15,075 nucleotides of DNA from Calditrichia bacterium (GTDB lineage Bacteria; Calditrichota; Calditrichia; RBG-13-44-9). The notes below the pieces were generated by a model. The model saw only the letters and a list, made by a program, of their open reading frames with translations. It had not been told where the DNA came from and did not search any database. Below, one piece after another: positions 42-15,075 of the stretch. Within the stretch, counting starts at the first letter, position 1. Each line of letters opens with the position of its first letter. The stretch is from assembly GCA_037381445.1 (NCBI GenBank), contig JARRQT010000067.1, forward strand, positions 1 to 15,075, read 5' to 3'. A program made the translations under genes and the position numbers.

Positions 42-750
42 CTACCATTCCAGCGCCGCCGCGAAATTTTCTATTGCCAAGTTAAATACGGCCGGCTTCT
101 GCAGACTGCACAGATGATTCGCGCCGGGAATGATCTCCAGTTTCGCATTATGGGCTGACGCCAGGAAGACCAGTTCGTCCTGGCGGAAAATAATATCCTT
201 TTCCCCATTGAGAAATAATATCGGCACCGCGATGCCGGAAACCATCTTTGAAAAATTCCGGCCCGCAATTTCCGAAACGATCTGAGGAACAGCCCTGAAA
301 TAGAAGCCGTCCGCAATGATCGGATCGGCGATTTCCGGGGCAAATATGCGCCGGAAAATAATGCGGTTCAGGGATGAAAGCATTCTTTCGCTCAATATCC
401 GCGTGAAAAAGGCACCAATCCGGGGCGGAATGGTTATCGCGCCCCGCGGGTTGGTGCTGCAGCCGGAGAGGACCAGCCCGCAAAGCTTTTCCGGGTGTTT
501 GAACGCGAATTCCATGGCAACATATTTCCAGCCGGAAAGGAATATCTTTTAATGCCCCATGACCGGGCATATCGGGGGCGACTACCCGGTATTTCCCTGA
601 CAGCTCTTTCACCTGCGGCAGCCACATCCTGCGGGTCAGGCGGGTACCGTGAACGAGAATGACGGGTTTGCCTGCCGGGGGACCGGCCGCATCAAACCAG
701 GAATTTATTTCAGGAACATTCATTGAACGAATTTTTTCACTCCAAAGCAT
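42..750 (-). pseudogene. Alpha/beta-fold hydrolase, disrupted by an internal deletion and frameshift at ~525-527 (start at 750 or 723)
   Basis: The N-terminal frame (ORF 148..750) has the hydrolase motifs VILVHG, MWLPQV and RVVAPDMPGHG up to PFRLE (540-526). The C-terminal frame (ORF 42..515, extendable to YVAMEFAFKHPEK from 524) has ILFLNGEKD (acid) and IIPGANHL (His). The segment with the GxSxG nucleophile elbow is absent from all frames. Confidence 0.8.
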
Positions 751-864: not shown

Positions 865-1962
865 TTAATAAATATCCCCGGCCTCATACTGGCTGAGTTC
901 TTCCACCTCCACTTTTTTGTCAGCAGCCGCCTGCCGGTAGCGGAATATTTTGCCCTCATAATTACGCAGGACCACCTCGTCATCGGACATGTGGATCACA
1001 TAATTGGGCAGCAGGGGAATCTTGCCGCCGCCGCCGGGAGCATCGATGACAAAATGGGGCACCGCCAGGCCTGATGTCCATCCCCGCAGGGACTGGATAA
1101 TTTCCAAGCCCTTTTCCACCGAGGTACGGAAATGCTCGGTGCCGAAAACCATGTCCGCCTGGTAAATGTAATAGGGGCGGACGCGGGCTTTCAGTAGTTT
1201 CTGCATCAGCTCTTTCATCACCTCCGGATCGTCATTCACGCCCTTCAGCAAAACAGTCTGGTTGCCGAGGGGAATTCCGGCATTGGCGAGCTTTCCCAAT
1301 GCTTTGACCGCCACCGGTGTCAGTTCCCTGGGATGGTTAAAGTGCACATTCATGAAAAGCGGATGATATTTTTTAAGCATATTTGTTAATTGGGAGGTAA
1401 TTCTTTGGGGCAGGAAGCACGGAACGCGGGTTCCGATGCGGATGATTTCAACATGCGGAATGCGCCTGAGCTTCTGAAGAATATATTCAATTTTATCATC
1501 GCTTAACAATAGCGGGTCGCCGCCGGACAGGATCACGTCGCGGATTTCAGTGTGCTCGCGGATATACTCGATGCCTTCATCGATGAATTTCAGGCTGATT
1601 TTGGTGGGATCGCCAACCTTGCGCTTGCGGGTGCAGAAGCGGCAGTAGGAGGCGCACACATGGGAAACCAGGAACAGGCAGCGGTCCGGATAACGATGCA
1701 CAATATTGTTTACCGGCGAATCCTTGTCCTCCGCCAGGGGATCTTCAAAAAGACCGTTATCAGCCAGTTCCTGCTTGTCGGGGACAATCTGCCGGTAAAT
1801 AGGGTCCCCTTTTTCCCTGATTAATGACAAATAATAAGGTGTTATTTTTATATTAAATTCATGTTCGATATTCTGGATTTCTTCCAGCGGAATATCAAAT
1901 TTTTCTGCGATTTCTTTTGCGCTTGTGACACTATTTTGCAAAATTTTGCGCCATCGCTCCAT
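865..1962 (-). CDS. kamA: KamA-family radical SAM/PLP enzyme, probable lysine 2,3-aminomutase
   Basis: Motifs [14 protein letters not shown] (CxxxCxxC), [38 protein letters not shown] and the PLP-lysine motif [18 protein letters not shown] upstream. Confidence 0.92.
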
Positions 1963-2467
1963 TTTCTTTTTTTCCTCCCGTTGTATAAACGTTCAAATGT
2001 TTGACGAAAATCAGCCGGTCATCGCCCGGCCGGTAAAAATCTTTGATCCGTGCTTCCAGCTTGTACTGATTCCTGAAGTAAAATTGCTGGGTAGGGGTAT
2101 ATTTCGGCTGGGATGATGTTTCAATAATGATCAGTCTTCCCTGCTCCCGGGCGATTTCCTTTTCAACAAAGTGCAGCAGTTTCTTGCCGATCCCCTGGTT
2201 CTGCAGGGCGGGCGAAACGGCTATCCAGTATAGATCGTATGTTCCTTCCGTGGCCGGCGTGGGACCATAGCAGACATAGCCCGCTACTTCCGAATTTTCG
2301 GTTTCAGCCACCGCTATGCTGTAATCATTCTGTTCCTTGTTGAACAGATAAACATCAATCAGCTCCATTGCCACATTCACTTCGGCCATGGTAAACATAT
2401 CGGTTTGCTGCAATATTTCGTAGATGGCTCCCCGGTCTTCGGGAAGCAGTTTTCTGAACTTAATCAT
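1931..2467 (-). CDS. GNAT-family N-acetyltransferase
   Basis: Acetyl-CoA binding motif A ([17 protein letters not shown]) and typical GNAT strands ([21 protein letters not shown]). Overlaps the upstream ligase by 8 nt and kamA by 32 nt. Confidence 0.9.
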
Positions 2468-3476
2468 GTGCCATCCTGTTCATGGTTTGGTTAATGACAA
2501 AATCGACAAACTCCCGGTATTTCATTCCCGCCGCTTTCACCGCATTGGCAAATCCGGCGTCCATCGATATATCGGGATTGGGATTGAATTCGAGGACATA
2601 AATCCGCCCCGATGAATCCACCCGGATATCCACGCGGCCGTAATCGCGTCCCATTAAAAGATGATAGACCTGCAATGTCACATCGGCCAGCCGCTGCCGC
2701 AGATCCTGGGAAATATCCGCCGGGCACACAGCCGGTGTTTTCTGGAATAGCGGGTGGTGCGGCAGCCATTTGGCCTCGTAGCTGGTAATATGATGGTGTT
2801 CCGCTTCCAGCTCGGCAAAGTTGATTTCCGAAACGGGCAGCACCTTCGCAGGATTGTTTCCCAGTACGCTCACATTGAATTCGCGTCCCTGGATAAATTT
2901 TTCAACCAGCACCGGCTGTTTATAGCGTTTCAGGAGTTCCGCAACCACTTTGCTCAGTTCCTCGAAGTTGTGGATGATGGAACGCTGCGTGATGCCGATG
3001 CTAGCATCCTCGCGGGCCGGCTTGGCAATCAGCGGGTAATTCAGATAGGTGTGCTTGGGCGTTTCCGAATATACCTGGTACATGGGCGTGGGAATTTTTT
3101 TCGATTCGAACAGCTTTTTGGCCAGCACCTTGTTTTGGGCCAGCCCCAGGGTAAGCGGCGTATTACCGGTGTAAGGAATGCCCAGCAGCTCCCAGAATCC
3201 GGCAATATGCATCTCATGATGAGCGTCCCCCCGGTAGCCTTCACACAGGTTAAAAATCATGTCCGGGGCAAATTCTTTTACCTTCTGGATGTCCTTTTCA
3301 ATGTTGCTTACCGGCAGGTAACCGGGGATGTGGTCCAGTTTTAAAACCGCTTTGTAGATATTGTCCGCCTCGGTTTTCACCGCCGCTTCGGAGATGTAAT
3401 CCAGGTTATCGCCGTTCTTTTTATCCGGATCGTTATAGGCAATCAGGACACGATATTTTCTTTGTTTCGAAGTCAT
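2460..3476 (-). CDS. D-Ala-D-Ala ligase-like ATP-grasp enzyme (second of pair)
   Basis: Motifs LGIPYTG, NKVLAK, PLIAKPAREDASIGI, VLVEKFIQGREFNV, SYEAKW, GRVDIR, VLEFNPNPD. ATGA overlap with the upstream ligase. Confidence 0.88.
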   Translation of the reverse strand: MTSKQRKYRVLIAYNDPDKKNGDNLDYISEAAVKTEADNIYKAVLKLDHIPGYLPVSNIEKDIQKVKEFAPDMIFNLCEGYRGDAHHEMHIAGFWELLGIPYTGNTPLTLGLAQNKVLAKKLFESKKIPTPMYQVYSETPKHTYLNYPLIAKPAREDASIGITQRSIIHNFEELSKVVAELLKRYKQPVLVEKFIQGREFNVSVLGNNPAKVLPVSEINFAELEAEHHHITSYEAKWLPHHPLFQKTPAVCPADISQDLRQRLADVTLQVYHLLMGRDYGRVDIRVDSSGRIYVLEFNPNPDISMDAGFANAVKAAGMKYREFVDFVINQTMNRMAHD

Positions 3477-4525
3477 AGAGGCAGTCCGTATCTCTTGGCT
3501 GCAAATTCAAGCACTCTGTTCAACATGTCCGCATAATGGTAACCGGCTGTGTGCGCCGCCTTCGGAAAACAGGAATTGTCTTCCGGCTTGGGAAGAATGC
3601 CGGGAAGCGGATTTAACTCCAGAATATGCGGAATACCCTGGTCATCCATCCTGACATCTACCCGGCACCAGTCGCGGATACCCATTACCTGGTAAGTGTC
3701 TCGCACCACATCTTCTATTCTTTCCTGCCGGATTGATTCCAGCGTCGCCGGGCACTGGAATATTTCCAGCGGCTGCTGCGGAGTGTCCCAGATCCATTTC
3801 GCTTCGTAGGAGTAAATCGGCTGTGCCCCTTCCGGCAAGTTCTGATAATTGATGGCCACAACAGGCAGGATTTCGATATCATCTCCGTTGCCCCAGATGG
3901 CAACCGTGTATTCATCGCCGGTCAAAAAGCGCTCGATCATGACCGGTTGATTATAGCGCTGAATTTTTTCGCGGATCTTCTTTTTCGCATCGGTCGCGTT
4001 TAAAACTACCGAGTCATTGAATATTCCCTTGCTGCTTCCCTCCGATACCGGCTTTACGATGGCCGGAAATTCAACCTCTTCCACATTTATTTCCTGCAGA
4101 GGATAGAAAACCCGGAAAGCCGGCGTGGGAATCAGATAGTAGCTCAATACCTCCTTGGCACGGGCCTTGTTCAGACAGATGGCCAGAGTGAGCGGGTCCG
4201 AGCCGGTGTAGGGAATGCCCAACTGCTCGCAGATGATGGGCACCTTCGACTCCCGGAAATCCCCGAACAGGCCTTCCGCCATATTGAAAACGAGCTCCGG
4301 CCCGTGTTTGATCAGATTTGCCTCCACCGCATCATTGGCCTCAATCCCCACCACATTGTGTCCGTTGCTGCGCAGCGCTTCCATCACAGCCTTGATCGTT
4401 TCGGGAGAATCACCTTCGGCAAAGAAATCTGCGGGTATTTCCGCTTCATGAAATTTATTGCCGCGATATCTTTTATATTCCTGCAAAAGTCCCTGTTTAC
4501 TGCTATAGGTTAATGCGATCTTCAT
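3473..4525 (-). CDS. D-Ala-D-Ala ligase-like ATP-grasp enzyme (first of pair)
   Basis: Motifs LGIPYTGS, NKARAK, PAIVKPVSEGSSKGI, IERFLTGDEYTV, YSYEAKW, CRVDVR, ILELNPLPG. Confidence 0.88.
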   Translation of the reverse strand: MKIALTYSSKQGLLQEYKRYRGNKFHEAEIPADFFAEGDSPETIKAVMEALRSNGHNVVGIEANDAVEANLIKHGPELVFNMAEGLFGDFRESKVPIICEQLGIPYTGSDPLTLAICLNKARAKEVLSYYLIPTPAFRVFYPLQEINVEEVEFPAIVKPVSEGSSKGIFNDSVVLNATDAKKKIREKIQRYNQPVMIERFLTGDEYTVAIWGNGDDIEILPVVAINYQNLPEGAQPIYSYEAKWIWDTPQQPLEIFQCPATLESIRQERIEDVVRDTYQVMGIRDWCRVDVRMDDQGIPHILELNPLPGILPKPEDNSCFPKAAHTAGYHYADMLNRVLEFAAKRYGLPL

Positions 4526-4581
4526 TTCAAATTCCCACTGTATTTCTGTTAAATTCTATAATTATATGCCTAAGTGGATGC

Positions 4582-4809
4582 CTAATTAAGCGTGGTAGTA
4601 TCCACCTTTGCAGTATCGATCCCCAGGGTGTCGACTCCCATGGAATCGATATCGGAGGTGTCTTTCATGCTGCTGTCCGTTAAGGTGGTATCCATCATGC
4701 TGGTATCACGCTGAGTTGAGGTTTGAGGTGTTTTGGTTCCTTCGGATTTCTGACATGCAAAAATTCCGAAAGTCAATATTATCAGGGCAATCATAGTAAA
4801 ACGGTACAT
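4582..4809 (-). CDS. Small lipoprotein (75 aa) with eight D-[T/S]-x-x-x pentapeptide repeats
   Basis: AAGGAG RBS at 4821-4816 sits 6 nt before the ATG at 4809, favouring this start over 4824. Signal peptide MYRFTMIALIILTFG followed by a lipobox-like IFA-C19, then a low-complexity T/S/D-rich mature part. Confidence 0.78.
   Translation of the reverse strand: MYRFTMIALIILTFGIFACQKSEGTKTPQTSTQRDTSMMDTTLTDSSMKDTSDIDSMGVDTLGIDTAKVDTTTLN
4588..4707 (-). repeat. Eight degenerate 15-nt (5-codon) tandem repeats within the lipoprotein
   Basis: DTSMM DTTLT DSSMK DTSDI DSMGV DTLGI DTAKV DTTTL; each unit starts with an Asp codon followed by a Thr/Ser codon. Confidence 0.85.
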
Positions 4810-4843
4810 AATCTTCTCCTTCATAAATTGTTTTTATTATATA

Positions 4844-4860
4844 ATCAATGATAGTGCCAA
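4844..4860 (-). promoter_or_regulatory. Sigma54 (RpoN) -24/-12 promoter
   Basis: The minus strand reads TTGGCAC-TATCA-TTGAT versus consensus TGGCAC-N5-TTGCW (GA instead of GC at -12). It lies about 35 nt before the lipoprotein ATG and just downstream of a sigma54 activator gene. Confidence 0.72.
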
Positions 4861-5062: not shown

Positions 5063-6427
5063 TTATTCCAGATTATATTCTTTGATTTTCCGGTAGAGGG
5101 TGGCCAGACCGATCTCAAGGGTTTTTGCGGCCTTTTGCTTGTCGTAATTGAAATACTGCAGCGTTTTTTGAATGGCTGTCTTTTCAATTTCGGAAAATGA
5201 CATGCCTACCGAGACCACGATGCTGCGCTGGGTGTCCTCCAGGCCGGCAGCCAGCACCGGCAGGTGATGCAGCTTCAGGAAATCGTCCTGGCAGAGAACC
5301 ACCGCCCGTTCAATCATATTCTCAAGTTCCCGGATGTTGCCGCGCCAGGAATAGCGCATCATCTGTTTCAGGGCATCCGGTTCAATTCCCTGTATATTTT
5401 TATTATTGATGCGGTTATATTTTTCGATAAAGTGCTGCACCAGAAAGGGAATATCGTCGGTTCTTTCCCGCAGGGCGGGCATGTGAATGGTAATAACATT
5501 CAAACGATAGTACAAGTCCTCCCGGAACGTCCCGTTTTCGACCCGCTCTTCCAGATTGATGTTGGTTGCCGCCACAAAACGAACGTCCGCTTTCTGGGTG
5601 GTCAGCGCGCCCAGCCTTTCAAATTCACCATTCTGCAGCACCCGCAGCAGTTTCACCTGCATGGCCGGGGTCAATTCGCCCACTTCATCCAGAAAGAGCG
5701 TTCCATCGTGGGCCAGCTCGATCTTTCCCTTCTTTTGCTTGACCGCACCGGTAAAGGCCCCTCTTTCATAGCCGAACAGTTCCGCCTCCAGCAGGTTTTC
5801 GGGGATGGCGCCGCAATTTATTTTCACGAAAGGCTTATCGGCGCGGGGACTGTAAAAATGGATGGCGGAAGCGGCAACTTCCTTTCCCGTGCCGGTCTCG
5901 CCGGTGATCAAAACGGTGGTCCGCGACGGCGCGATCTGCTTGATAAATTCCTGAATCTGTTTGAAACGGCTGCTGACCCCGACCAGTTGGGGAAAGCCCG
6001 GTTCCAGTTTCAGGAATTGTCTCAGCCGTTCATTTTCGCGGCGCAGTTTGATGGTCTCGCTCAACCGCGACAGGATCCTCCGCAGATCGGCGAAGCGGAA
6101 AGGTTTGACCAGGTAATCATAGGCGCCGCCCCGGATGGCCTCCACCGCCGATTCCACCGATCCGTAGGCGGTTATGATAATCACCGAAGTGCCGGGATAA
6201 TTTTCCCGGGCGTAGCCCAGAATATCCAGTCCGGAGCCGTCCTTCAGTTTCAGGTCCGTCACCACGATATCGGCGTCGCTGGTTTTCAAATAGTTCAGAG
6301 CTTCCTTGCGGGAGGTGGCGGTGGCGATCTGATAACCGTTTCCCTCCAGCCCCATTTTCAGCGCGTTGAGGGCGTCAACTTCATCGTCTACGATGAGAAG
6401 CTTCAGCTTATTCGTTTCCATTTTCAT
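5063..6427 (-). CDS. NtrC/AtoC-family sigma54-dependent response regulator (REC-AAA+-Fis HTH)
   Basis: Receiver (LIVDDE, VVTDLKL, ITAYG, YLVKPF), Walker A GETGTGKE, GAFTGA, Walker B LFLDEV, DLYYRLNV, WRGNIRELEN and HTH AAKTLEIGLATLYRKI. Start could be 6427 or 6421. Confidence 0.96.
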   Translation of the reverse strand: MKMETNKLKLLIVDDEVDALNALKMGLEGNGYQIATATSRKEALNYLKTSDADIVVTDLKLKDGSGLDILGYARENYPGTSVIIITAYGSVESAVEAIRGGAYDYLVKPFRFADLRRILSRLSETIKLRRENERLRQFLKLEPGFPQLVGVSSRFKQIQEFIKQIAPSRTTVLITGETGTGKEVAASAIHFYSPRADKPFVKINCGAIPENLLEAELFGYERGAFTGAVKQKKGKIELAHDGTLFLDEVGELTPAMQVKLLRVLQNGEFERLGALTTQKADVRFVAATNINLEERVENGTFREDLYYRLNVITIHMPALRERTDDIPFLVQHFIEKYNRINNKNIQGIEPDALKQMMRYSWRGNIRELENMIERAVVLCQDDFLKLHHLPVLAAGLEDTQRSIVVSVGMSFSEIEKTAIQKTLQYFNYDKQKAAKTLEIGLATLYRKIKEYNLE

Positions 6428-7967
6428 CTCTGTTTTTTGTCAAGGGAAGGCTCACCGTGAAGCTGGTTCCCCTCCCCGGTTGGGAGGCATATGAAATCCG
6501 GCCGCCATGGGCGTTTACGATCTCACGGCTGATAAAAAGCCCCAAACCTTCCCCGGATTTCTTGGTGGTAAAAAACGGTTCAAATATCTTGTTTTGGTAA
6601 TTGGGATCGATGCCCGGCCCGTTATCGGTAATTTTGACTAAAACCCGGCTATTTCTGCGGTAGATTTTTACCCGCACCTGCCCGTCCTCTCCCAGCACCT
6701 CAAAAGCGTTGTGAAAAAGGTTCATGAAAACCCGTTTCAACTGCAGCCAGTCCGCCATGACGGGGTAATCCCTCTGCAGCCTGGGATGATTTATTTTGAT
6801 CTTTCTGACGGACGCCTCGTAGATGACATCCTGCATCATATTTTCAAACTGTTCGGACAGATTACAGGGGACCATATTCAGGTCAGTGAGATGCGTATAG
6901 CTCAGGTAATGGTTCAGGCTCGTAGTCAGATACTGAATCTGGTTCTGCATTTTCTCCAGCAGGCTGTTTACTTCCGGGCGGATTGATCCGTATTCCCGCT
7001 GCAGGGCGTTTGCCAGCAGTTCCGAATGCAGGCCCAGCGTATTGAGGGGATTCCGGACATCGTGCATCATGGCGCTGGTCAGCCGCGAAATGGTGGTGAG
7101 CCGGTCAATCTTTTTGATGTGAGAATCGAATTTTGCCTGTGTGGAAATATCCTGAAAACTTACGATGAATGCGATGTTGCCAGGATTAATCTTGCGGATC
7201 CGGCTGATGGAAACCAGCGCCGGGAAGCTGTTGCCGTCGTTGCGCAAAATGTTCAGGTGCAAGGTCGGCACCCTCTCCCTTTCCGAGCGCACCCGTTTTA
7301 AAAACAGGTCCCGGGATTTCAGCGCAAAGACTTCCGTGATCCTCTTTTTCAGGATATTTGCAGGTTCCAGCCCGGTGAGGCGGGAAGCCATCGGGTTCCA
7401 GTGAAGCACATGCAGTTCCTCGTCACAGCCCACCACCCCGATGGGCGATTCCTTGATTAGCTGGTAGATCACGTTCAACTGCTTCTGTAGTCCATTTTTT
7501 ACGATTTTCAGTTCCTGGATCAACTGCTGGTCCTTCAGCCAGATATCCCGGTAAATCTGGCCCCACCACTGGCTCAGAAAAATGAGGGCGTAATCGAAGA
7601 TTTTCTGGACATTTTCCAGCTTTGCATTAAAATCTTCTCCTTCGTTGACATGATGATGGATCAAAAAGTGGTTGAGAACCACCCGGGCTGTCCCCAGCAG
7701 CGCCAGCTGCAGATGGAAATTGCGCCTTAATTTGCTGTCCCTCTGGAACGTCTGCAGGTAGAAATGGCTCAGATAGTGACCGAATTCATGGCGCCGCTCG
7801 GATTTCAGGTCTTTTTCCACATGGGAAAATATACCCTCCAGAATCCGGGCGCAGGATTCCTCCGTAATTTCGAGATGCTCGCCCCAGCTGGCGGTAAACA
7901 GGGTCTCCATGCTGGTATCGATGAGCGCCGCTTTGTTGGTATGTATAAGATTGCTGATACTTTTCAT
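6408..7967 (-). CDS. Cytoplasmic PAS-domain sensor histidine kinase
   Basis: PAS (ESPIGVV...WNPMASRLTG), H-box MMHDVRNPL, N-box VFMNLFHNA, DNGPGI, FEPFFTTK and GEGLGL. No evident transmembrane helix. Overlaps the regulator start. Confidence 0.93.
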   Translation of the reverse strand: MKSISNLIHTNKAALIDTSMETLFTASWGEHLEITEESCARILEGIFSHVEKDLKSERRHEFGHYLSHFYLQTFQRDSKLRRNFHLQLALLGTARVVLNHFLIHHHVNEGEDFNAKLENVQKIFDYALIFLSQWWGQIYRDIWLKDQQLIQELKIVKNGLQKQLNVIYQLIKESPIGVVGCDEELHVLHWNPMASRLTGLEPANILKKRITEVFALKSRDLFLKRVRSERERVPTLHLNILRNDGNSFPALVSISRIRKINPGNIAFIVSFQDISTQAKFDSHIKKIDRLTTISRLTSAMMHDVRNPLNTLGLHSELLANALQREYGSIRPEVNSLLEKMQNQIQYLTTSLNHYLSYTHLTDLNMVPCNLSEQFENMMQDVIYEASVRKIKINHPRLQRDYPVMADWLQLKRVFMNLFHNAFEVLGEDGQVRVKIYRRNSRVLVKITDNGPGIDPNYQNKIFEPFFTTKKSGEGLGLFISREIVNAHGGRISYASQPGRGTSFTVSLPLTKNRDENGNE

Positions 7968-8013: not shown

Positions 8014-8324
8014 AAGGATTGCTATCGTCGTCCAAAATTACGCTCGATTTTTTTCGCACTAAATTAACATATTGAGTGAAAAAAGAAAACTAATTTCAAA
8101 ACATGAGGCGAAAAATATGGATTTATTTTCCGGATAATTGGAGAAAAAACAGGGAATGGGGGTTGAATAGATTAATTTTTTGGGTTTTGAGAGGAATGGC
8201 GAACAGGGAGATGAACAACCGGGATTTGGCCAGTGATTTCAGGATGGCAATAATCGGAAAATATGCGGCCGGATAATCTTTGACCGGCGGATTGTCCGGA
8301 GATCATTTTGAGGATGATTGGAAA

Positions 8325-9989
8325 ATGGCAATTGAGAGAAACAGTTGGGGGAGCCGCATCGGCCTGATTCTGGCCATGGCAGGGAATGCGGTAGGGCTCG
8401 GAAATTTTTTGCGCTTCCCGGTGCAGGCAATCCGGAACGGCGGCGGCGCCTTCATCATTCCCTATCTCATCTCCTTTCTGCTGATGGGTCTTCCGCTGCT
8501 GTGGGTGGAATGGGCCCTCGGCAAGTACGGCAGCCGCTTTGGCGATCATGCTTCCCCTTTCATTTTTGACCGCATGGGGAAGGGACGATTCTGGAAATAC
8601 CTGGGCGTATTCGGCATCTTCTCCAATTTTGGGGTGGCGGCCTACTATGTTTATATCGAATCGTGGACATTTTCGTTTGTCTGGTTTTCGGTATTCGGCA
8701 GCTTTTCGGGCCTATCGGAAAGCGGGGTCAGCCATTTTTTCGATAAATATGTGAATATCAATCCCGGCATGGTGAATCTGCCGGTGATCGCCTTCCTGTT
8801 CTTTCTGCTGACCCTGTTCATCAATATCACCATCCTGTCCAAAGGCCTGAACAAAGGGATCGAACGGGCCTCCAAAATCGGGATGCCGCTGCTCCTGCTG
8901 TTCGGCGTTCTGCTTGCCATCCGGGCCGTGACCCTGCGCCAGGGCGTGGAGGGCGCCACATTTGATTCCGCGGTGGGGCTGAATTTCCTGTGGCAGCCGC
9001 AGCTCAAATCACTCTACAACCCGGATGTATGGCTGGCGGCCGCGGGACAGATCTTTTTTACGCTTTCCCTGGGGATGGGCACCATTGTCTGCTATGCCTC
9101 CTATCTGGACAGCCGCGACGATATTGCCCTCAACGCCATGTCCGCCGGCTGGATGAATGAATTCGTGGAAATAGTGCTGGGCGCCTCCATTGTGATTCCC
9201 ATTGCGGTGGGCTACATGGGGCTGGATTGGGTCAAGGCCAACGCCGGTTTCATGATGGGCTTCAAAACCATGCCTTATCTTTTTCAGCAATGGGGACCGT
9301 TCCTCGCGGCGCTTTCCGGGGTCCTGTGGTTCGGGCTGCTCTTTTTTGCTGGAATCACTTCTTCTCTGGCTTTCGGCACCCCGTGGATGGCCATGATGCA
9401 GGACGAGTTCAACTGGGACCGCAAAAAGTCCGCCTACACCTTTGGCCTGCTCATCCTGCTTCTGGCGCTCCCCTGCATCTTTTTCTTCCAGGCCGGTGTG
9501 TTCGATGAATATGATTACTGGACCGGCACCGTCTCCCTGGTCTTTTTCGCCTTGATCGAAATCATCCTGTTCGCCTGGGTGTACGGCATCGATAACGGGT
9601 GGCAGGAAATCACCGGCGGCGCAGACATTTCTGTTCCGCAGTTCTTCAAAAAAATTATCAAATATGTCACGCCGCTGTTCATCGCGGTGGTCTTCATCGG
9701 ATCGCTCATTGAACCTGCCGGCGGGGAATGGATTGCAGCTTTCAAAAGCCTGTTTGCCGGTCACGGCTGGCCCTTTGATGCCGCCAGCCTGGTGAGCAAG
9801 GTTTTTCATTTGAGCGAAAAAGATACCCGCTGGTTCATCAACGGCCGGGCCACCACTATTTTCATCATCGACATGTCCCGGGTGCTGCTGACCCTGGCAT
9901 TCCTGGGAATTGCCCTGGTCGTGAAACTGGCCATGGTGAGGAGAAAGCGGCTGCAGAAAAACGAAAATCTGGATGGAGTCACATCATGA
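8325..9989 (+). CDS. NSS (SNF/LeuT) family sodium-dependent amino-acid transporter
   Basis: Motifs RNSWGSRIGLILAMAGNAVGLGNFLRFP, NGGGAFIIPY, KGIERASK, AAGQIFFTLSLGMG and FFAGITSS, with many hydrophobic helices. The ATG at 8325 with GAGGA upstream is preferred to the TTG at 8280. Confidence 0.94.
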   Translation: MAIERNSWGSRIGLILAMAGNAVGLGNFLRFPVQAIRNGGGAFIIPYLISFLLMGLPLLWVEWALGKYGSRFGDHASPFIFDRMGKGRFWKYLGVFGIFSNFGVAAYYVYIESWTFSFVWFSVFGSFSGLSESGVSHFFDKYVNINPGMVNLPVIAFLFFLLTLFINITILSKGLNKGIERASKIGMPLLLLFGVLLAIRAVTLRQGVEGATFDSAVGLNFLWQPQLKSLYNPDVWLAAAGQIFFTLSLGMGTIVCYASYLDSRDDIALNAMSAGWMNEFVEIVLGASIVIPIAVGYMGLDWVKANAGFMMGFKTMPYLFQQWGPFLAALSGVLWFGLLFFAGITSSLAFGTPWMAMMQDEFNWDRKKSAYTFGLLILLLALPCIFFFQAGVFDEYDYWTGTVSLVFFALIEIILFAWVYGIDNGWQEITGGADISVPQFFKKIIKYVTPLFIAVVFIGSLIEPAGGEWIAAFKSLFAGHGWPFDAASLVSKVFHLSEKDTRWFINGRATTIFIIDMSRVLLTLAFLGIALVVKLAMVRRKRLQKNENLDGVTS

Positions 9990-10110: not shown

Positions 10111-11046
10111 TCACTCAGCGAAAGCTGTTTTCCCGTTTATCTGCTCTTTCATGAAACCGGCGATCTGAGCGGCGCTATTGCGCACGATGTCATCCGGCAC
10201 CCCGTCCCGGTTTTTGGATTGCAGCCGCATGTCGCACGATTCGTTTACATAATCCACCACGATGAATTTCTGGTCCTCGGTGACCGCAATTTCCGTCGAG
10301 AAGAAATACAATTTGCAGATTTCGGCGATTTGATGCACCATCGGGAAGAGCGGCTGCAGCGTATACTGTTCAATTTCATCCGGGCTGAGCGTCTGGTATT
10401 GATGGGTCAGATCATTCCACCAGGCGCACTGCACCAATCCGCAGGAGTAAAATCCCCGGAACCAGAAGCGTCGCCCGTCCCTTTCCAGCGGGGTCACGAT
10501 TTCCTGCAGAAGGTACTTGTCCTGCTGGTATTCCTGCCGGGCCTTGAGCACATCCTGCAGGGTCTCTGCGCCATGCACCACCCCGATGCCGCCGCCGGTG
10601 GTGTTGGCCGGTTTGATGATAAAATTGCGGCCCAGATGCGCCAGGTCTTCCACGGAAAGGGCGCAGACCGCTTCGGTATCGTAGGGGGGCAGAATGATGG
10701 TGTGGGGCGTGTGCAGGCCACGGGAAATGAATTCCAGGTGCATGGTGGCCTTATCGGATGCCCAGCGCAGACTCTCCAGCGGTTCGAACACCCTCACGCC
10801 GCTATCCGTCAGCAACTGCTGAAGCCCCAGGAATTCGGGGGAGGTGTCGGAGGCCCGGTCGAAAAGGTAGCCGAAACGCAGCCCGCCCTCTGCCACGTCC
10901 TTCATGGTTTCCTGCAGATTATCCGGCGTGACGATGAAAGTAGTAAGCCCCATGCCGTGGGAAGCCTCTTCCAGCAGGCGGATAAAATCATGGTCGTATT
11001 CCCAGTCGGAAGCGACGGCGAAATCGAAAGGACGCGCCTTCTCCAT
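10111..11046 (-). CDS. Uncharacterised ATP-grasp fold protein (RimK/glutathione synthetase-like)
   Basis: Ordered ATP-grasp motifs: ASDKATM, GLHTPHT, FIIKPANTTGGGIGV, YLLQEIV, FFSTEI and VVDYVNE. Confidence 0.72.
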   Translation of the reverse strand: MEKARPFDFAVASDWEYDHDFIRLLEEASHGMGLTTFIVTPDNLQETMKDVAEGGLRFGYLFDRASDTSPEFLGLQQLLTDSGVRVFEPLESLRWASDKATMHLEFISRGLHTPHTIILPPYDTEAVCALSVEDLAHLGRNFIIKPANTTGGGIGVVHGAETLQDVLKARQEYQQDKYLLQEIVTPLERDGRRFWFRGFYSCGLVQCAWWNDLTHQYQTLSPDEIEQYTLQPLFPMVHQIAEICKLYFFSTEIAVTEDQKFIVVDYVNESCDMRLQSKNRDGVPDDIVRNSAAQIAGFMKEQINGKTAFAE

Positions 11047-11603: not shown

Positions 11604-11727
11604 GCGGGTGATTTTATTCCGGCGGCCAAAAAAATGTTGTATTGCCCGCCGGAGTTGTCTATCATTGGATTCAAAGAAAGGAAGCAGTTATATAAAAATT
11701 GTAACGCATTGAGGAAACAGATTGACG

Positions 11728-14700
11728 ATGAAAAATAGATTCTATCCCGGACACCCCATCCACCAGCACTTGAAGGAACGGATACTGATCATGGACGGGG
11801 CCATGGGCACCATGATTCAGCGTTACCGCCTCACCGAACAGGATTTCCGGGGTGAGCGCTTTGCCGATCATCCCGTGGATGTGCGGGGAAACAACGATTT
11901 GCTGTCCCTCACCCGTCCGGCAGTGATTGACGAGATACACCGGGCCTACCTGGAGGCGGGGGCGGACCTGATCGAGACCAACACCTTCAATGCCAACGGG
12001 GTGTCGCAGACCGATTACCACATGCAGGAGCTGGTTTATGAGATGAACCTGGAATCGGCGCGGATCGCCCGCAGGGCGGCGGATGAAGTCACCGCAAAAA
12101 ATCCGGTAAAACCGCGTTTTGTGGTGGGGTCCATCGGCCCCACCAACCGCACCGCTTCGCTGTCGCCTGATGTCAATCGTCCCGGCTACCGCGCGGTGAC
12201 TTTTGACGATCTGGTGGATGCCTATTCGCCGCAAATCCGGGGGCTGATAGACGGCGGCGCGGACCTGCTGATGGTGGAGACGGTATTTGATACCCTGAAC
12301 TGCAAGGCCGCGCTGTTCGCCATCGATCGTATCTGCGGAGAGATCGGCCGGAAAATCCCCGTCATGGTTTCCGGCACCATTGTGGACGCCAGCGGCCGCA
12401 CCCTTTCCGGGCAGACCCTGGAAGCGTTCTGGATATCCGTCTCCCATGCCGATCTCCTGAGCGTGGGCCTGAACTGCGCCATGGGGGCCGCCCAGATGCG
12501 CCCTTTCATGGAGGAGCTTTCCCGCATGGCGCCCGTTTATACCACGGTTTATCCCAACGCCGGCCTGCCCAATGAATTCTGCGAGTATGATGAGACTGCC
12601 GAGATCACCGCAGGCTTTCTGGCGGAATACGCGGACAGCGGCTTCATCAATATTGCCGGCGGGTGCTGCGGCACCACCCCGCCCCATATCCGCAAAATCG
12701 CGGAAACCCTGGCCGGCAAAAAGCCCCGCCGGATTCCCGAAGTGGAAGCGTATGCGCGTTTCAGCGGACTGGAACCGCTCACCGTTCGTCCCGATTCCAA
12801 TTTTATCAATGTGGGGGAACGCTGCAATGTCACCGGTTCGGCGCGCTTCGCCCGCCTCATCCGCGAGGAAAATTACGAGCAGGCCCTGGAAGTCGCCCGC
12901 CGGCAGGTGGAAAACGGCGCCCAGATCCTGGACATCAATATGGACGAGGGCATGCTGGACTCCGCGCAGGCCATGGTGACTTTTCTCAATCTCATCGCCT
13001 CCGAACCGGATATTGCCCGGGTCCCCGTGATGCTGGATTCCTCCAAATGGTCGGTGATCAAAGCGGGGCTGAAATGCGTGCAGGGGAAATGCATCATCAA
13101 CTCCATCAGTCTGAAGGAGGGGAAGGACGTTTTTAAATCCCATGCCGCGCTGGCCCGCCGTTACGGCGCAGCGGTCATTGTAATGGCCTTCGATGAACAG
13201 GGGCAGGCGGACACGGTGGAAAGAAAGGTGGAAATCAGTGCCCGGGCCTTCAAAATACTGACCGGCGAACTGGATTTTCCCCCGCAGGATATCATCTTTG
13301 ATCCCAATATTTTCGCGGTGGGGACCGGCATCGAGGAACATGCCGATTACGCCCTCAACTACATCGAGGCCGCCCGCCGGATCAAGGCCATGCTGCCCGG
13401 CGTGCTGGTGAGCGGCGGGGTGAGCAATATCTCTTTCGCTTTCCGTGGCAACAATACGGTGCGGGAGGCCATGCATTCCGCTTTCCTGTATCATGCCATC
13501 CGGGCGGGCATGGACATGGGTATTGTGAATGCCGGCCAGATTACGGTGTATGAAGAGATCCCTAAAGATCTGCTGTCCATGGTGGAAGACGTGCTGCTGA
13601 ACCGCCGTCCGGACGCCACCGACCGGCTGGTGGCCTTCGCTGAAACGGTGAAGCAGAAAGGGAAGGAAAAGAAGGAGGAACTGGCCTGGCGCAGGGACCC
13701 GGTGGAAGCGCGCCTGATCCATTCACTGGTGAAGGGAATTGTGGAATTTATCGAACAGGACACCGAGGAGGCGCGGCAGAAATACGGCGAAGCCCTGCAG
13801 GTGATTGAAGGCCCGCTGATGGACGGCATGAATGTAGTGGGCGATCTGTTCGGTTCCGGGAAGATGTTTCTGCCGCAGGTGGTGAAAAGCGCGCGGGTGA
13901 TGAAAAAGTCGGTCGCTTACCTGGTGCCTTACCTGGAAGCGGAAAAGGAGAAGTCCGGCGGCCGGCAGATGGCCGGAAAAATCCTGCTGGCCACCGTGAA
14001 GGGGGACGTCCACGATATCGGGAAAAATATCGTGGGTGTGGTGCTTGGCTGCAATAATTATGAAGTGATCGATCTGGGCGTGATGACGCCAGCCGAAAAG
14101 ATACTGGAAACCGCCCGCCGCGAAGTTCCGCTGCTCATCGGCGGGGCCACCACTTCCCGCAAGCACACCGCGGTGAAAATCGCGCCGGCATATTCCCATC
14201 CGGTGGTCCATGTGCTGGATGCCTCACGCAGCGTGTCGGTGGTTTCCAGCCTGCTGGATGCCAAGCGAAAGGGCGGATTCGTGGAAGAGATCGGGCAGGA
14301 ATATGAGAAAATCAGGAAAGCCCACGAGCAGCGCTACGGAGCGAAGGAACTGCTGAGTCTGCAGGAAGCCCGCGCCAACCGCCTGCAGACTGATTGGAAC
14401 CAGGCGGAGATCACCCGGCCCTCTTTTCTGGGGACCAGGCTGTTCGATGATTTTCCGCTGGAGAAAATCCGGGAACGCATTGACTGGACGCCGTTCTTTT
14501 GGACCTGGGAATTCAAGGGAAAATTCCCCGCCATCTTCGATCAACCCGGTTACGGGAAGGAGGCCCGCAAAGTATACGATGATGCCCAGGTGCTGCTCGA
14601 TAAAATCATCCGTGAAAAACGGCTGAAGGCGCAGGCGGTAATCGGGTTCTTTCCGGCGGGCAGCGTGGGATTTGACGACATCGAACTGTACGCGGATGAT

Positions 14701-15075
14701 TCCCGGGACAGCCTGCTCGCCACGGTGCATACCCTGCGGCAGCAGATGAGGAAACCGACCGAGCAGCCCAATCTGGCGCTGGCGGATTTCGTGGCGCCGG
14801 CGGAAAGCGGCGTGCGGGACTACCTGGGAATGTTTGCGGTGACCGCCGGGGTGGGAATTGAAGATCTGCTGCGTGAATTCGGGGAAGCGCAAGACGATTA
14901 CCACAGCATCATGACCAAGGCGCTGGCGGACCGCCTGGCGGAAGCCTTCGCGGAACTGATGCACGAACTGACCCGCAGGGAATTCTGGGGATACGCCCCG
15001 GAGGAAAATCTAAGCAACGAAGAGCTGATTCACGAGAAATACCGGGGGATCCGTCCCGCGCCCGGCTACCCGGCC
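11728..15075 (+). CDS. metH: Cobalamin-dependent methionine synthase, 3'-truncated by the window edge, with an in-frame ~31-codon deletion in the B12-binding domain
   Basis: Open frame from the ATG at 11728 (GAGGA upstream) to the window end. Contains [18 protein letters not shown] and GGCCGTTP (Zn/homocysteine domain), [20 protein letters not shown] and SGGVSNISF (pterin domain), [14 protein letters not shown] (cap), [12 protein letters not shown] (B12 His), and [12 protein letters not shown] and IRPAPGYPA (AdoMet activation domain). Confidence 0.96.

Follow-up and report, generated by a model that had tools for sequence, protein, structure and literature searches.

Organization of the operon

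The stretch of DNA considered here, 15,075 nucleotides of contig JARRQT010000067.1 from a Calditrichia bacterium (GenBank assembly GCA_037381445.1; hereafter the window), carries on its minus strand a compact operon in which a kamA gene of the lysine 2,3-aminomutase type is combined with two genes for ATP-grasp ligases resembling D-alanine-D-alanine ligase (Ddl) and one for a GNAT acetyltransferase. In the order of transcription, the enzymes are ligase 1 (4525-3473; 350 amino acids; Dala_Dala_lig_C E 2.5e-32; Ddl fold, TM 0.74), predicted to activate beta-lysine; ligase 2 (3476-2460; 338 amino acids; Dala_Dala_lig_C E 2.2e-34), which has a remodelled acidic substrate site; a small single-domain GNAT other than AblB (2467-1931; 178 amino acids; Pfam Acetyltransf_1/7); and KamA (1962-865; 365 amino acids; LAM_C and Radical_SAM), which lacks the C-terminal Cys/Zn tail. 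The four genes overlap by 4, 8, and 32 nucleotides. Upstream lies a sigma-54-type -24/-12 motif with a variant -12 box (4860-4844, TTGGCAC-N5-TTGA), and 3' of kamA a terminator-like hairpin flanked by T-runs on both sides (778-819), which a simple terminator scan overlooked although its folding z is -3.2. The five co-oriented genes between a sigma-54 motif and a terminator, and their overlaps, are as the initial annotation of this DNA had described them, all on the minus strand. Its statement that the window lacks efp, epmA, and kamDE also holds, with no such open reading frame (ORF) in the ORF list or family scans. No RNA data set was listed as containing the operon, a result without bearing on its expression. 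Rfam gave no match, and among the matches listed from related-strain contigs of public sequencing runs covering the stretch, no indel falls inside the four enzyme genes.

The fifth gene, a lipoprotein-like ORF of 80 amino acids (4824-4582, minus strand; likely start at 4809, downstream of AAGGAG), encodes a hydrophobic leader, a Cys, and a D/T/S-rich tail without a family match, and is separated from ligase 1 by 56 nucleotides. Earlier counted as a core member of the operon, it has a homologue in just one of the 16 other loci of the phylum. Its presence in 2 of 17 loci, the window included, rules it out as a pathway member; it is a passenger.

Conservation and gene fusions

Among 86 genomes of the phylum Calditrichota, that of the window included, a close ligase 1 was found in 17, again counting its own. 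Fourteen of the 16 other loci keep the order ligase 1-ligase 2-GNAT-kamA, and the remaining two end at contig edges. Three further genomes of the phylum have the order kamA-ligase 1-ligase 2-deacetylase-GNAT, so that 20 of 86 carry what we call the cassette. From 600 metagenomic stretches scanned, 548 encoded a relative and the best 80 of these 548 were kept; all four genes were present in 40 of the 54 loci with at least 2 kb downstream. Outside the phylum, a sample of 215 genomes contained 60 with a match at E 1e-45 or better, 35 of which were inspected: kamA adjoins ligase 1 in 21 of them, belonging to 19 families, and all four genes occur in 12. The linkage of kamA with two ddl-like genes and a GNAT gene, whose conservation had been proposed as a check, is therefore found both in the phylum and in many other lineages.

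At some loci the proteins themselves are joined, with KamA fused to ligase 1 (L152), ligase 2 to the GNAT (L153), a deacetylase to a GNAT (L160), and two ligases to each other in tandem (L157 and L158). In four genomes (G394, G418, G430, and G438) the operon is scattered, and ligase 1, ligase 2, GNAT, a window-type KamA (56-66% identity), and ligase 3, described below, are all retained, which points to a shared function rather than hitch-hiking. A fifth genome queried in this way, G425, gave no GNAT or kamA match; its cassette reaches the contig end. Among 101 neighbouring ORFs at 28 loci, no recurrent carrier, substrate protein, transporter, or Mur/Fem gene was found.

Some individual loci deserve separate mention. 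The tandem-ligase fusion of L158 (7275-9341; genome G223) lies beside kamA and, judged by eye, its first domain apparently lacks the ATP-binding lysines and is possibly a pseudo-enzyme half. The KamA-ligase 1 fusion (L152, 2040-6923; genome G158) is located one short ORF downstream of earP-efp, an arrangement seen once only and probably coincidental. L194 (5911-10442; contig C71 of G046) is a second, apparently decayed window-type locus with a sigma-54 regulator, a ligase 2 in two pieces, a GNAT, and ligase 3.

KamA is predicted to form beta-lysine

The window KamA matches PDB entry 2A5H at E 2e-122. Its best-scoring family model is TIGR03820, with 501.6 bits under a cut-off of 525.4, and the EpmB model gives 244.7 bits against a cut-off of 369.3. 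A quick tree places the cassette KamAs with AblA-type enzymes, apart from EpmB. In all 70 aligned cassette KamAs the CxxxCxxC motif, R112, D270, D307, and K314 are kept, and the position of the zinc ligand Cys268 is not a cysteine. Following the 2A5H enzyme for roles and numbering, we take R112 to be the substrate arginine, D270 and D307 the contacts of the lysine side-chain amine, and K314 the lysine that binds pyridoxal phosphate (PLP); a literature search turned up no paper on the roles of the lysine-contact residues. Two other KamA-family genes of the same genome lack the Asp pair, and a close KamA tracks the cassette, none of five cassette-free genomes of the phylum having one above 42% identity. 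With lysine-type residues in 70 of 70 proteins, the enzyme is predicted to be a beta-lysine-forming lysine 2,3-aminomutase, as first annotated.

The genome holds further genes of this family. Contig C18 (G000, 11820-21323) carries a canonical ablA-sodium/solute symporter-ablB operon, 4 kb from which a 625-amino-acid KamA-family protein is encoded. In that protein Asp293 is replaced by Lys and the aligned site lacks the PLP lysine; in the product of a fourth KamA-family gene, on C80, Arg takes the place of Asp293. A search of the genome for lysine 5,6-aminomutase gave no match, but the controls were equally silent and the genome is 92% complete. No EpmA above the cut-off was detected in it.

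The two ligases depart from Ddl at the substrate site

Both ligases score far below every Ddl and Van cut-off (186.5 and 150.9 against 243; 141.4 and 136.3 against 245.65). They share 36% identity with each other and about 27% with Escherichia coli DdlB, and a canonical ddl is present on contig C100, so that they are distinct from the Ddl of the cell, as supposed from the outset. The ATP-grasp fold is kept in both, as are, in DdlB numbering, the ATP/Mg residues K97, K144, E187, D257, E270, and N272 together with R255; because of this both are likely to be active enzymes.

The substrate site is where they differ from Ddl. The roles of the ATP/Mg residues, of His63, Ser281, and Leu282 in the D-Ala pocket, and of the E15-S150-Y216 triad are mostly assumed after DdlB. 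Glu15 and Arg255 are named as active-site contacts of DdlB in a figure legend (PMC5717164). In neither ligase are the D-Ala pocket and the triad those of a Ddl: the residue at His63 is Glu in every one of 145 aligned proteins (79/79 for ligase 1, 66/66 for ligase 2), and that at Tyr216 is mostly Trp. Ligase 1 retains Glu15 (78/79), S150, Gly276, and Ser281, and its donor site, with an extra acid, appears suited to a diamino acid and its acceptor site to an amino acid. Ligase 2 shows the changes H63E, G149D, S150A, G276D, S281A, and L282G, with Asp at 149 in 66/66 and at 276 in 62/66 sequences, and the pair Ala281 and Gly282; D157 and D302 of this ligase are invariant acids. Such a site would be open and acidic, and suited to a larger basic amine.

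In a FastTree phylogeny of 112 rows, for which only 12 kamA-type metagenome loci were kept and in which ligase 2 does not form one resolved clade, fusions of ligases to peptidases fall outside the ligase-1 subclade of the window. In L049 (7675-10828; G030), L050, L172, and L177, relatives of the ligases variously carry as fusion partner an S58 DmpA/beta-peptidyl aminopeptidase (with a deacetylase next in line), a peptidase-like domain at the C-terminus (of the M20 type in L172), or an S-adenosylmethionine methyltransferase. None of these has an adjacent kamA. On two plasmids, distant ligases stand with kamA and diaminopropionate/diaminobutyrate genes (L057, NC_019941.1, Thioflavicoccus) or with kamA and panD (L058, NZ_CP080523.1, Mesorhizobium), neighbourhoods suggesting that the ligase family prefers beta- or diamino acids.

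Acetyltransferase, third ligase, and deacetylase

The window GNAT is, as already thought, not an AblB, since the AblB model TIGR03827 matches only contig C18 of the genome. Its nearest solved chain, 2R7H (E 1.6e-40), belongs to the same GNAT subfamily and bears the label 'putative D-alanine N-acetyltransferase', the depositors' own. We take 2R7H to be a structural-genomics entry and know of no assay of it.

Two members that the initial annotation had overlooked track the cassette. The first, ligase 3, is encoded in the same window (10111-11046, minus strand; 311 amino acids) and is an ATP-grasp protein without a Pfam match. Its model (pLDDT 90.8) has the ATP-grasp fold, with TM of about 0.65 to Ddl, ArgX, and LysX; Foldseek searches with this model gave generic ATP-grasp matches only, and sequence searches of the PDB gave no relative. 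Ligase 3 is present in 20/20 cassette genomes of the phylum versus 1/66 others, where the single copy is split and the genome 79% complete. Of 151 genomes from a second phylum, 26 encode it, all within the 32 with a window-type ligase 1, a set strongly shaped by shared ancestry. The cross-phylum sample has it in 2 of 215 genomes, both cassette-bearing, and in a third phylum it lies directly before ligase 1 in the one genome where it was found. These counts indicate that ligase 3 nearly always accompanies the cassette and that the cassette does not depend on ligase 3.

The second is a GNAT-deacetylase fusion of 581 amino acids, located on contig C244 of the genome. It is present in 14 of the 20 cassette genomes, adjacent to the cassette in 11, versus 0/66 others. 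The best solved relatives of its deacetylase are acetylpolyamine amidohydrolases.

Probable sigma-54 regulation

Directly upstream of the operon, a gene for an NtrC-type sigma-54 response regulator (5063-6427, minus strand), identified by family scans and found at the same place in 10 of 16 other phylum loci, is the likely activator. Next to it lies a PAS histidine kinase gene (6408-7967, minus strand; family scan), whose product has no predicted membrane helix and an N-terminus resembling RsbRD_N (score 0.84; a lead only). The -12 consensus of sigma-54 promoters is TTGC, where the window has TTGA. The motif TGGC-N7-TTG occurs in 12 of 17 orthologous upstream regions versus about 0.03 expected per 400 nucleotides on one strand genome-wide. 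All 11 loci with a visible adjacent sigma-54 regulator have it, and beside the five motif-less operons, from two genera and including two short contigs, no such regulator was seen. The genome possesses rpoN. A -24/-12 motif, rpoN, and an enhancer-binding protein are thus all in place, and the sigma-54 control initially proposed gains support: the operon is probably transcribed with sigma-54 under the control of the adjacent two-component pair. Of 16 upstream positions tried at other loci (with crudely placed starts; three are kamA-first loci of the same phylum), only one has the motif, so its conservation applies to the window-type loci of the phylum.

Other features of the window

Downstream of the operon, an alpha/beta hydrolase gene (42-750, minus strand) is split into two frames. 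Related-strain contigs from all three runs have 80 extra bases at 524/525, so that the window copy has a deletion and is either a pseudogene or an assembly error. Between the kinase and ligase 3 lies a gene of the sodium:neurotransmitter-symporter family (8280-9989, plus strand), as also in G074; a cobalamin-dependent methionine-synthase-like gene, recognized by eye (11722-15075, plus strand), comes after ligase 3, as in G080 and G082.

A proposed pathway and its alternatives

From the observed genes, conservation, fusions, residues, and co-occurrence, we infer the reactions, product, and role as follows. The operon would encode a cytoplasmic, carrier-free route from L-lysine to a small, soluble beta-lysyl amide, usually N-acetylated and built from two or three units, a reading to which we give a little better than an even chance. 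KamA would make L-beta-lysine from L-lysine. Ligase 1 would then use ATP to activate beta-lysine at its carboxyl and couple it to an amino acid, a role suggested by the retained donor Glu of DdlB, the second acid at the His63 position, the retained acceptor-carboxylate Ser, and the fusion to KamA seen in a single genome. For ligase 2, in which acids and small residues take the place of the DdlB acceptor pocket, we propose the formation of a second amide, here with an amine that is larger and more basic, such as a second beta-lysine or a polyamine. Acetylation of a free amine would fall to the GNAT, which one genome has fused to ligase 2; in genomes that have ligase 3, this enzyme could extend the product by another residue, and the GNAT-deacetylase fusion could strip the acetyl group for turnover. 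The product might serve as a stress solute or nitrogen store. The simplest order, in which KamA is followed by ligase 1 and then ligase 2 and the GNAT works alongside ligase 2, takes the fusions into account and is offered tentatively, at well below an even chance.

A number of points weigh against the proposed route. KamA falls slightly below the TIGR03820 cut-off and lacks zinc ligands, and G277, a 99% complete genome, carries a distant ligase-1-like gene, with no KamA found by the query used. The composition of the cassette varies: L117 has no ligase 2, ligase 3 is present in only 2 of 21 cross-phylum cassette genomes and 1 of 18 in the third phylum, both ligases and kamA occur with no GNAT between them in 4 of 54 loci (L105, L131, L135, and L138), and seven genomes of family f279 have no GNAT beside ligase 2. 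The GNAT-less cases indicate that acetylation is not obligatory. The N-terminus of ligase 2 aligns poorly, which leaves its donor site uncertain, and of the DdlB and KamA residue roles used, Glu15 and Arg255 alone were seen in a paper. The related genomes counted are kin rather than independent cases, and the evidence consists of sequence comparisons and structural models.

The acceptor may be a polyamine. An arginine decarboxylase gene lies upstream, with no kamA in view, in 8 of 80 metagenome loci, and in the third phylum (251 genomes, 18 of them ligase-1 carriers) the ligases of 14 of the 18 follow a pyruvoyl arginine decarboxylase with an agmatinase and/or a deoxyhypusine-synthase-like gene. 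In two of these 14 the operon includes kamA; each of the remaining 12 genomes has a lysine-type kamA at another site, and no ablB lies within 1.5 kb of it. Polyamine genes thus appear to be added to KamA, with no replacement, and the decarboxylase is ruled out as a KamA substitute. As a marker of the pathway within the phylum of the window it is likewise ruled out, being present in 3 of 5 cassette genomes versus 4 of 5 cassette-free ones. As a special case of the beta-lysyl amide route, ligase 2 could act much as glutathionylspermidine synthetase does and join a beta-lysyl or acetyl-beta-lysyl group to agmatine, putrescine, or homospermidine. The decarboxylase linkage, the likeness of the co-occurring hydrolase to acetylpolyamine amidohydrolases, and the invariant acids D157 and D302 of ligase 2 favour such a beta-lysyl-polyamine. 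However, the linkage is confined to one phylum, the decarboxylase does not follow the cassette in Calditrichota, and the queries used found no agmatinase or deoxyhypusine-synthase-like match in the genome of the window; moreover, a 1,4-diamine spacing is common to acetyl-beta-lysine and acetylputrescine and could account for the hydrolase even with no polyamine involved, so that the hydrolase does not decide the question. On balance we regard a polyamine product as rather unlikely.

Attachment of beta-lysine or its acetylated form to a macromolecule, whether a protein, a cell-wall precursor, or a cofactor, is in line with the Ddl ancestry of the ligases, with the resemblance of ligase 3 to the folds of RimK, LysX, and ArgX, which modify proteins, and with the one KamA-ligase fusion adjoining earP-efp. 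We nevertheless consider it improbable, given the lack of any conserved substrate, carrier, Mur/Fem, or transporter gene at the 28 loci, the sporadic lipoprotein, the presence of a canonical ddl, the AblA-type rather than EpmB-type KamA, and the lack of an EpmA over the cut-off in the genome. The cell-envelope or protein acceptor and the self-protection suggested in the initial annotation accordingly gained no positive evidence. Slightly less probable again is polymerization of beta-lysine into longer, GNAT-capped oligomers, a nitrogen store or polycation degraded by DmpA-type peptidases: up to three ligases, NtrC-type control, and the S58 and M20 fusions among more distant relatives would fit, but both ligases have the compact build of Ddl, a scaffold that forms dipeptides, and the peptidase fusions lie outside the ligase-1 subclade and away from kamA. 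Finally, the genes could be chance neighbours, spare D-Ala-D-Ala ligases beside a second ablAB for N-epsilon-acetyl-beta-lysine, as the database label 'D-alanine-D-alanine ligase' and the ablAB-like pairing of KamA with a GNAT would have it. This is largely refuted and very improbable, the ligases falling short of the Ddl cut-off with invariant substrate-site changes, the GNAT not matching AblB, true ddl and ablAB being present elsewhere in the genome, and fusions tying the parts together.

In its broadest form, the small-amide proposal would amount to a widespread and so far undescribed branch of amine metabolism in bacteria, with three ligases, an acetyltransferase, and a dedicated deacetylase both producing and recycling a beta-lysyl-polyamine or a beta-lysine oligoamide, controlled by a sigma-54 two-component system. 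The compound would represent a new class of cationic stress metabolite in many uncultured lineages; we put this forward as a doubtful possibility.

Significance and comparison with known systems

As far as checked, the cassette is real and widespread, and its product is described in no searchable paper. Full-text literature searches found no paper describing the gene set, and a 2009 amidoligase survey (Iyer et al., Mol Biosyst), outside the searchable text, may describe the neighbourhood. New here are ligase 3 and the GNAT-deacetylase as co-occurring members, the tracking of the promoter motif with the activator, the scattered operons that keep five genes, and the retention of KamA in the decarboxylase variants. 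Among 8000 proteins scored, 6285 matched at E 1e-40 or better, a number that may include other Ddl-like groups, and database entries for thousands of these ligases bear the name D-Ala-D-Ala ligase or ATP-grasp protein. Solving the pathway would add a fate of beta-lysine to fermentation, modification of elongation factor P, the AblAB osmolyte, and antibiotics; biocatalysis would gain beta-amino-acid ligases that need no carrier, and the orphan structure 2R7H would acquire a function. Together with the fusions, the added members point to which six genes and which substrates to consider first.

Several known systems share parts of this arrangement. From Ddl (E. coli DdlB and the Van ligases), whose fold, ATP/Mg residues, and Arg255 they share, the window ligases differ in their low identity, their scores, the uniform H63E change, the frequent Trp at Tyr216, their occurrence as two paralogues, and the remodelled acceptor site of ligase 2. 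As with EpmA/EpmB, a KamA-family enzyme would supply beta-lysine for ligation, but the window KamA is below the EpmB cut-off, the ligases are ATP-grasp rather than tRNA-synthetase-like enzymes, and no efp lies beside the operon. In AblA/AblB, a lysine 2,3-aminomutase is co-transcribed with a GNAT and the product is N-epsilon-acetyl-beta-lysine (PMC11337218, PMC3543383). The window likewise pairs such an aminomutase with a GNAT, but this is the 178-amino-acid non-AblB protein, it comes with two or three ATP-grasp ligases, and the true ablA-transporter-ablB operon is on C18. The negamycin cluster also combines beta-lysine formation with ATP-grasp genes and yields a beta-lysine-derived amide (bioRxiv 10.1101/2025.05.27.656397); by comparison, the window has no enzymes for hydrazine formation, methylation, or hydroxylation and no exporter, and its relatives belong to environmental lineages with likely sigma-54 control. 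By analogy, the operon thus resembles a KamA-fed ATP-grasp peptide pathway, but it belongs to neither the negamycin nor the AblA/AblB systems.

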